Origin: Shigella phage Sf16
Direction: 5' to 3' (one strand)
DNA length: 64,000 bases
Sequence record: MF158043
Below are positions 17,543 through 17,800 of the stretch, piece after piece (position 1 is the first letter of the stretch; each line of letters opens with the position of its first letter). A model generated the notes under the pieces. The model searched no databases. It was not told where the DNA came from and was given only the letters and a program-made list of their open reading frames with translations. The position numbers and the translations under genes were made by a program.

Positions 17543-17571
17543 TTGACATTCAGATGTGACCACTTTAAGAT
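17543..17571 (+). promoter_or_regulatory. sigma70-like promoter inside the tRNA island
   Basis: TTGACA-N17-TAAGAT. Confidence 0.5.
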
Positions 17572-17800
17572 AACCTTAGTTTTCGTTAGCGTAGCGTCTA
17601 TTTTAAAAACTTAAAAATAAATGCAAACGATAATGTTTTTCTGGCAGTAGCTTAATAGGCTAAACACCAGCAGGGTATTCCAACTCCCTGTTAAAGAATT
17701 TGGCGTACTAGCCCACGGTATGATTAATAAAGTGGGCAACATTCTAAAGAGCATCCCTTATGGGGCTTGGCTTAAATGCAATGAGTGCTCTTTAAAATGT
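17572..17800 (+). ncRNA. candidate structured non-coding RNA (~230 nt, unknown class)
   Basis: No ORF; hairpins CAGGG...CCCTG, GCCCA...TGGGC, GAGCA...TGCTC; lies between promoter and tRNA-Arg. Confidence 0.35.

Follow-up and report, generated by a model that had tools for sequence, protein, structure and literature searches.

The window analysed here is a 64,000-nucleotide (nt) stretch of DNA from Shigella phage Sf16 (sequence record MF158043), a Felix O1-like myovirus. It includes a cluster of 25 transfer RNA (tRNA) genes, inside which a 276-nt gap between tRNA-Ile(GAU) and tRNA-Arg(UCU) holds the gene for a structured RNA that is the subject of this analysis. Identity over the region was 99.6% with Shigella phage ESh22, and relatives from Citrobacter and Shigella followed closely. 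The features that frame the gap are:

17454–17528, tRNA-Ile(GAU), upstream flank of the gap.
17543–17571, + strand, sigma-70-like promoter: TTGACA (17543–17548), a 17-nt spacer and TAAGAT (17566–17571), scoring 10/12.
17805–17880, + strand, tRNA-Arg(UCU), downstream flank, called as a tRNA by ARAGORN and Rfam.

The initial annotation of this region, made from the sequence alone, described a TTGACA-N17-TAAGAT promoter followed by about 230 nt with several strong hairpins before tRNA-Arg(UCU). The promoter-like site was found where it had been placed, the three hairpins that it named (CAGGG/CCCTG, GCCCA/TGGGC and GAGCA/TGCTC) were present as described, and approximately 227 nt without a conventional gene precede tRNA-Arg, which starts at 17805. 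Its view that the segment is too long for a tRNA leader also stood. The RNA gene spans 17577–17804 (~227 nt) and is a separate structured RNA with its own predicted promoter and with covariation across relatives. What this account overlooked was a short reading frame resembling the tag of transfer-messenger RNA (tmRNA), the universal bacterial ribosome-rescue and protein-tagging system, and a 5′ end complementary to host tmRNA.

From the position of the promoter, transcription is predicted to start at approximately 17578. Promoter-like sites were not enriched in this AT-rich region, with 12 observed and 13.3 expected from shuffles. A sigma-70-like promoter was found 5–10 nt upstream of the same 5′ motif in Moogle (TTGACA-17-TATAGT), Kolesnikvirus (TTGACA-17-TAATCT) and the KpV2811-like phages (TTGACA-17-TAGATT), and it is because of this conserved position, rather than site enrichment, that the promoter is credited and the RNA is predicted to be expressed from it. 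No terminator-like site was found between the RNA and tRNA-Arg(UCU), and the 3′ end of the RNA is probably set by 5′ processing of this tRNA, presumably by RNase P. Folding energy gave a weak signal that did not favour either strand (z = -2.6 for the + strand and -2.7 for the - strand). As the promoter score and folding energy prove nothing on their own, the case rests on comparative evidence.

Conservation in related phages, which the initial annotation had named as a check, was extensive. A blastn search with the core of the RNA detected 597 phage records when the version in the window was the query and 751 when a prophage version was used. The groups represented were the Ounavirinae (Felixounavirus, Mooglevirus and Kolesnikvirus), the Ackermannviridae (CBA120, Marshall and Taipeivirus), N4-like Schitoviridae, KpV2811-like and Roufvirus siphoviruses, lambdoid and P22-like phages, and P1/P7 and HK620. 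The RNA was also present, with no annotation under the match, in 198 of 5426 complete E. coli genomes (~4%). Pattern scans recovered at least 120 matches in IMG/VR and six true members among the GTDB species representatives, all of them Enterobacterales; the other GTDB matches were mostly chance occurrences in AT-rich genomes, and those in Shewanella were rejected as members as they lie in a protein-coding gene. In P1 and P7 (L244 1199–1460 for P7) the RNA is encoded ahead of tRNA-Asn and tRNA-Thr, within the leader of the ban operon, which C1 controls. In HK620 (L245 1201–1376) it is found between pR′/qut and the late terminator marked in the annotation, a position in which the late promoter could produce it even in the absence of Q. 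These members were also unannotated.

The structure was examined in an alignment of 50 relatives sharing less than 93% identity. The conserved elements downstream of the reading frame start are:

17641–17670, + strand, hairpin resembling helix 5 of tmRNA: CUGG/CCAG, and GUAGC with GCUA(A)AC, with stop codons in the loop.
17671–17703, + strand, H-type pseudoknot: stem 1 CAGGG/CCCUG; the loop CCAA (17680–17683) pairs with UUGG (17700–17703).
17711–17737, + strand, hairpin GCCCAC/GUGGGC (arms 17711–17716 and 17732–17737) with the conserved loop GGUAUGAUUAAUAAA.
17739–17801, + strand, long 3′ hairpin ACAUUCUAAAGAGCA ... UGCUCUUUAAAAUGU, from the minimum free energy fold.

The overall covariation score was 0.277 compared with 0.142 in shuffles; it was matched by none of 500 shuffles, and all slid controls were lower. 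The base helix of the helix-5-like hairpin was paired in 92% and all four of its pairs covary, including a G-C to A-U change in 20 sequences. In the pseudoknot, stem 1 (17671–17675 with 17686–17690) was 99.2% paired, three of its pairs showing double changes in 13–21 sequences, and stem 2 (17680–17683 with 17700–17703) was 100% paired with covariation at 4/4 pairs (variants CCAA/UUGG, CCGA/UCGG, CCAG/CUGG, CUAG/CUAG and UCGA/UCGA). The loop motif UGAUUAAUAA of the next hairpin was near-invariant, while its stem changes in sequence and length in a compensatory way. In the 3′ hairpin AAAGAGCA (17746–17753) pairs with TGCTCTTT (17786–17793), and in one Felixounavirus (L027) the pair AAAGAGCA/UGCUCUUU is replaced by the compensatory pair AAAGGGUA/UACCCUUU. 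This hairpin is the counterpart of a ACAACAGGUAAGAGCA...UGCUCUUUCCGUUGU module in other lineages, and a different hairpin occupies its position in some Felixounavirus (L011). Some covariation was also seen in a helix within 17577–17622 (CUUUG/CAAAG; UAUUUU/AAAAUA in Sf16), upstream of the resume codon and at the position of pseudoknot 1 (PK1) of tmRNA.

It was also observed that the near-invariant loop GNUGUGAUUAAUAA, present at 17717–17731 and in relatives, resembles the helix-5 loop of host tmRNA, GCUUAAUAAC, which is the site of the host stop codons. It could be a protein-binding mimic.

These data bear on the possibility that the segment has no function, being either the remnant of a decayed tmRNA or the leader of a tRNA operon, cut off and then degraded. 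The RNA does sit among tRNA genes that upstream promoters transcribe by read-through, and its 3′ hairpin has been swapped in some relatives, as a relic or spacer would allow. Compensatory conservation in at least six unrelated phage groups and across 751 records, the presence of a dedicated promoter in several lineages and the near-invariant sequence blocks all argue against a relic, and we regard it as very improbable.

Two features, one upstream of the helix-5-like hairpin and one overlapping it, indicate what the RNA resembles:

17606–17622, + strand, linker and resume-codon context, AAAACUUAAAAAUAAAU, in which the bases A, U and A at -6, -5 and -4 correspond to A84, U85 and A86 of host tmRNA.
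17623–17658, + strand, tag reading frame, GCA AAC GAT AAT GTT TTT CTG GCA GTA GCT TAA TAG, encoding ANDNVFLAVA followed by two stops.

The ten codons occupy 17623–17652, with the first stop extending to 17655, and the peptide ANDNVFLAVA can be compared with the E. coli tag, ANDENYALAA. The A-U-A at -6 to -4 corresponds to 17617–17619 in the window, and its host equivalent, A84-U85-A86, is taken here from mutagenesis work to set the resume point in E. coli tmRNA. The stretch from AUAAAU GCA through to UAA UAG fits the tmRNA resume and tag consensus in the Rfam alignments. The junction UAAAU/GCAAA was invariant in 50/50 aligned relatives and lies outside any helix; the base at -6 is not fixed, being G in four relatives.

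The frame was assessed in 59 distinct versions from members picked without regard to ORF (open reading frame) length. It was exactly 10 codons long in 55 of them. Stops within the first 30 nt were found in a single sequence in frame 0, in 49 sequences in frame 1 and in 48 in frame 2. Entropy by codon position was 0.63, 0.52 and 1.03 bits, the third position being about twice as variable as the first two, and codon 10 was GCN with all four wobble bases occurring in the family. The predicted peptides keep an AN[D/E] start and an L-x-x-A end while the middle residues vary (pattern AN[DE]xxxLxxA), with examples including ANDDVVLMAA, ANEEMYLAVA, ANDEQFLAVA and ANDSEMRVAA, and ANDDLMMAAA in P1/P7. 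Judged from these alignments, the conservation is of the coding type and the frame appears to be translated, and no start codon or Shine-Dalgarno sequence was found for it. A conventional small-protein gene was considered and rejected, as ORFs of 24–47 amino acids are not conserved and the overlapping AUG frame (MQTIMFFWQ) varies in length and has stops in relatives. The invariant resume motif, TAAATGCAA, was noted once more in the 3′ hairpin at 17773–17792, where it reads GCA ATG AGT GCT CTT TAA (AMSAL, then stop); it is retained in Moogle, and in L027 it is found as AMSTL followed by a stop.

The statement in the initial annotation that the segment contains no ORF is therefore correct for conserved ORFs with a conventional start or ribosome-binding site but not for the 10-codon tmRNA-type frame at 17623–17655, and the same division applies to the short conserved peptide that it had raised as an alternative explanation: conventional small ORFs are not conserved, while the tag frame is. 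Likewise, the RNA was of unknown class in that no Rfam family reaches its threshold, but it is recognisable as a derivative or mimic of the mRNA-like domain of tmRNA. In the Rfam covariance-model scan, only tRNAs were detected in the region at gathering thresholds, but the tmRNA models aligned to the resume and tag region below threshold, with E-values of about 1e-4. In a permissive scan, the best scores were 34.7 bits for RF04321 (threshold 47), 20.3 for RF01849 (threshold 50) and 10 for RF00023 (threshold 47). The score of 34.7 for RF04321 (tmRNA_permuted) depends on borrowing the adjacent tRNA-Ile and fell to 17 bits without it.

The RNA has no canonical tRNA-like domain. ARAGORN found no tmRNA in the window, 17529–17804 contains no T-loop, and no tRNA gene, T-loop or tRNA-like sequence was found in the complete genome of KpV2811. 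A strict T arm was absent from the region between -450 and +650 in 46 of 93 distinct members, and a consistent tRNA-like partner inside or beside the RNA was not found across the family. The AAGAGCA/UGCUCUU hairpin was considered as an acceptor stem and rejected, as it has G3-C70 rather than G3:U70 and its inserts differ between relatives. Taken together with the tag frame, the sequence features suggest that this RNA is recognisably the mRNA-like domain of tmRNA without a tRNA-like domain, either derived from tmRNA or mimicking it.

The 5′ end of the RNA is occupied by an arm that matches the host tmRNA in the opposite orientation:

17577–17605, + strand, antisense arm, UAGUUUUCGUUAGCGUAGCGUCUAUUUUA, complementary to E. 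coli ssrA.

Pairing was examined using RNAduplex with E. coli K-12 ssrA as the target. The near-invariant seed UAGUUUUCGU (17577–17586), located at the predicted transcription start, is the exact reverse complement of ssrA 98–107, which covers codons 3–6 of the host tag. The arm in the window forms 23 bp with ssrA nt 80–107 with no G-U pairs (dG -23.2; free energies in kcal/mol). In most lineages 40–50 nt are antisense to host tmRNA nt 54–107, and long-arm lineages form 36–43 bp on ssrA 54–107 with dG of -40 to -49, compared with shuffle means of -22 to -37 (standard deviation ~3). An exact complement of at least 10 nt was present in 64 of 91 distinct family arms, and the best pairing fell on ssrA 79–107 for 83 of the 91. 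When the lineages were compared with ssrA using blastn, the top match was on the minus strand and at the same place in six of seven; the E-values were individually modest (5e-4 to 0.5), while place and strand were consistent. For two prophages, ssrA was located on another contig of their own genome, and the duplexes with it reached -44.5 and -48.6. Duplexes between the arm and the RNA's own frame were far weaker (-12 to -26), and the seed, counted by eye, matches the host at 10/10 positions and the phage's own codons at 6/10. The segment at the PK1 position, in which some covariation was seen, is the same segment as this antisense arm.

Because the RNA copies the message part of tmRNA, lacks the tRNA part and starts with sequence antisense to host tmRNA, its effect on the host may be to divert ribosome rescue or to block it. 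Our favoured reading, to which we give slightly under an even chance, is that, by annealing to host tmRNA, the RNA hides the tag template of the host and substitutes its own frame. The single-stranded 5′ end (the seed UAGUUUUCGU and further blocks) would serve as a toehold, and the resulting duplex would cover the A-rich linker, resume codon and codons 1–6 of the host and, in long-arm relatives, also the 3′ half of PK1. The host tag template would thus be masked by the duplex, and the resume region of the phage RNA would be freed from its weaker self-pairing with the same arm. The alanyl-charged tRNA-like domain of the host, with SmpB, would still enter stalled ribosomes and translation would resume on the phage frame. 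If ribosomes do use that frame, rescued proteins would receive (A)ANDNVFLAVA instead of (A)ANDENYALAA. The broader form of this proposal is that a widespread phage RNA class acts as a detachable tag template, with the host tRNA-like domain and SmpB forced onto the virus's frame in a chimeric host-virus two-piece tmRNA; this we offer tentatively, as an idea with appreciable odds that are nevertheless on the wrong side of even.

The same complementarity data fit a simpler role as an antisense RNA or decoy, in which the arm blocks tmRNA or causes it to be cleaved, as RNase III might do on the long duplex, and tagging is shut down. The tmRNA-like remainder would then be a self-pairing partner, a scaffold or a decoy for proteins (SmpB, S1 or RNase R) that is never translated. 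That the arm also pairs with the RNA's own resume region, in the style of a toehold hairpin, is consistent with this, as is the report that a tmRNA fragment of phage DS6A consisting only of the tRNA-like domain inhibits tmRNA (PMC4131195). An antisense or decoy role leaves the coding signature unexplained, namely the fixed length of 10 codons, the lack of stops in frame 0 only, the wobble variation, and the conserved AN[DE] and L..A ends with a free middle. Nor does it account for the resume context, which lies in no helix and is nonetheless invariant. We consider it unlikely, but the most serious competitor to replacement of the host tag template.

Several points count against tag replacement. 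The duplex formed by the arm in the window is short and was equalled by 18 of 600 shuffles, and is only modestly above chance because U-rich arms pair readily with an A-rich target. Covariation matched to the host was not seen; ssrA is almost invariant in the sampled Enterobacterales hosts, and the comparison is uninformative because the target is nearly constant. A host ssrA variant with GAA ACC UAC (tag ANDETYALAA), which we take to be the Salmonella type, would mismatch the seed, and many members infect Salmonella. In the distant member GArcari the frame has a stop at codon 5. The model would also require a ribosome engaged with host tmRNA to load a template held by base pairing alone. Finally, many members adjoin tRNA-like modules, and for this reason the tRNA-like partner may be supplied by the phage.

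The candidate partner in Sf16 lies upstream of the RNA:

16940–17070, + strand, circularly permuted tRNA-like element between tRNA-Asp and tRNA-Lys, approximately 550 nt upstream of the RNA.

It has a T arm, GAAGG-TTCAATT-CCTTC (16998–17014), a D arm, GGTGTAATGGAAGCAC, and an outer helix, AGACCGT/ACGGTCT, and it scored 30 bits as a tRNA in Rfam. Its acceptor-like helix is ACACG/CGUGU, closed by a loop, with C3-G70 and without CCA. Compensatory variants of this helix occur in the Ounavirinae, ACUCGGC/GUCGAGU in one case and ACCCUUC/GAAGGGU together with an encoded CCA in Moogle. The element is missing from other lineages that carry the RNA, and its link to the RNA is uncertain.

ARAGORN reports a permuted 'tmRNA*' in Moogle that uses the same tag frame, with the 3′ tRNA domain corresponding to this upstream element. 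The call was rejected as a gene model as its 5′ tRNA domain lies inside a genuine tRNA-Lys and its "intervening segment" contains three tRNA genes. The ARAGORN tmRNA calls in Felix O1-like genomes are thus composite artefacts around a real element. Genome announcements state that Felix O1 and Moogle encode ssrA (PMC4319497, PMC4392139), and the ARAGORN call in Moogle explains these remarks.

Modules resembling parts of tRNAs were also noted around the RNA in other lineages. In five lambdoid prophages and siphoviruses (L015, L016, L023, L030 and L062) it is flanked by repeated modules consisting of GGTAAGAGCATT, a variable insert of 50–70 nt and AGTGCTCTTTCC. A T arm, together with a hairpin whose loop is CGGAGA, is found in some of the inserts, and the overlapping helices ACAACAGG, CCGTTGTGGTG and CCACCACAAC occur in the same flanks. 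In many prophages, a module ending in ...CTCTTTCCA abuts the 5′ end of the RNA. Three Ackermannviridae (L005, L006 and L008) have, about 200 nt upstream and downstream of the RNA, a noncoding region of approximately 2 kb that contains several small tRNA-like structures not called by ARAGORN; these include GGCGAAG...TATGGTTCGATTCCATGCCTTCGCCA, which has no anticodon arm, and a downstream T arm followed by ...CTCCAATCCCA.

The RNA might accordingly be the coding piece of a split, permuted phage tmRNA, with the tRNA-like domain provided by phage modules (the 16940–17070 element here and hairpin modules bearing T arms elsewhere) and the pieces joined by base pairing. The permuted ARAGORN call in Moogle, the T arm, D arm and compensatory acceptor helix of the upstream element with its CCA in Moogle, the presence of T arms near about half of the members, the T-arm modules flanking the RNA in prophages, and the existence of two-piece tmRNAs in marine phages (PMC9004378) are all in keeping with this. 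Against it, the Moogle call is stitched together from a real tRNA-Lys, the acceptor helices have A3-U70 or C3-G70 rather than G3:U70, and the acceptor of the element in the window forms a closed hairpin that lacks CCA. The two elements are separated by three tRNA genes and a promoter, and no helix joining the two RNAs was found. KpV2811 has no tRNA-like sequence at all, and the antisense arm would be left unexplained. A split phage tmRNA is, in our view, improbable.

Other features were noted in the vicinity of the RNA gene. An ORF of 115 amino acids resembling an HNH endonuclease, with CxxC and HH motifs, is located directly after tRNA-Arg (17896–18243), and in some relatives (H22 and H23) the Ile-Arg gap is itself split by an HNH gene. 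A tRNA-like sequence, GGGACGA...GGGGTTCGAATCCTCCGTCCCATGCCA, is found at 18405–18487; it is not called by ARAGORN or Rfam and may be a degenerate tRNA. A structured spacer at 17076–17210, before tRNA-Lys, contains a long-range helix, CTTTGCAGTGAC/GTTACTGCAAAG.

How phages deal with tmRNA is largely obscure, and this RNA bears on that question. What is new is a conserved and abundant RNA with a decodable tag frame, no tRNA part and a 5′ end that runs antisense to the tmRNA of the host. Hundreds of phages carry it, among them P1, HK620 and Felix O1, which serve as laboratory models; annotation was lacking wherever we looked, and Rfam has no model for the family. We found no published description of the RNA family or its tags beyond the remarks of "tmRNA" that trace to ARAGORN, in a search that did not cover the P1 genome paper or the 79 phage entries of a 2025 tmRNA database; in a curated survey from 2014, the only phages given as having ssrA were mycobacteriophages and Bacillus phage G (PMC4131195). 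If replacement of the host tag template is correct, a virus takes over a host quality-control pathway in a new way, by a tag-swapping mechanism that would be categorically new, and one genome can provide the tRNA function of tmRNA while another provides its mRNA function. P1, HK620, Felix O1 and CBA120 would then have carried a tag-reprogramming RNA unnoticed.

The RNA can be compared with several known systems. T4 species 1 and 2, also known as RNA C and RNA D, are small stable non-tRNA RNAs encoded in phage tRNA clusters, and the RNA described here is like them in being a non-tRNA RNA within a phage tRNA operon that is probably released by tRNA processing; we know of no relationship between them in sequence or structure. 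Prophage anti-small RNAs or sponges, such as AgvB and AsxR of enterohaemorrhagic E. coli, pair with host non-coding RNAs, and the present RNA similarly comes from a phage and has a 5′ seed that is complementary to a host non-coding RNA of high abundance. It differs from AgvB and AsxR in that its target is tmRNA and in also having a conserved decodable frame. The tmRNA of mycobacteriophage DS6A (PMC4131195; PMC11915505) is another phage-encoded partial tmRNA thought to disturb host trans-translation, but it represents the opposite half, having a tRNA-like domain without a tag frame where the RNA in Sf16 has a tag frame without a tRNA-like domain.

The one-piece tmRNA of the Enterobacterales hosts (SsrA, RF00023) shares a homologous tag layout, the A-U-A at -6 to -4 and a stop in a hairpin loop. 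Unlike SsrA, the phage RNA has no tRNA-like domain, has one pseudoknot rather than four and is ~227 rather than 363 nt long, and its relation to the host RNA is one of complementarity, not that of a substitute copy. The closest resemblance in layout is to the coding piece of the two-piece, circularly permuted tmRNAs of the Alphaproteobacteria and others (RF01849 and RF04321), also found in the marine phage Melnitz (PMC9004378). The resume context UAAAU/GCAAACGA is shared, as are a tag of approximately 10 codons of the AND type, stops in the helix-5 loop, an H-type pseudoknot directly after it and the separation of the RNA from the piece that bears CCA, and the Rfam alpha_tmRNA model aligns to the tag, helix 5 and pseudoknot of the phage RNA. 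The phage RNA differs in having no 5′ acceptor strand, D-loop or P2 and in scoring below the Rfam threshold; many of the genomes that carry it have no cognate acceptor piece, and the place of PK1 is taken by the arm antisense to the host tmRNA.

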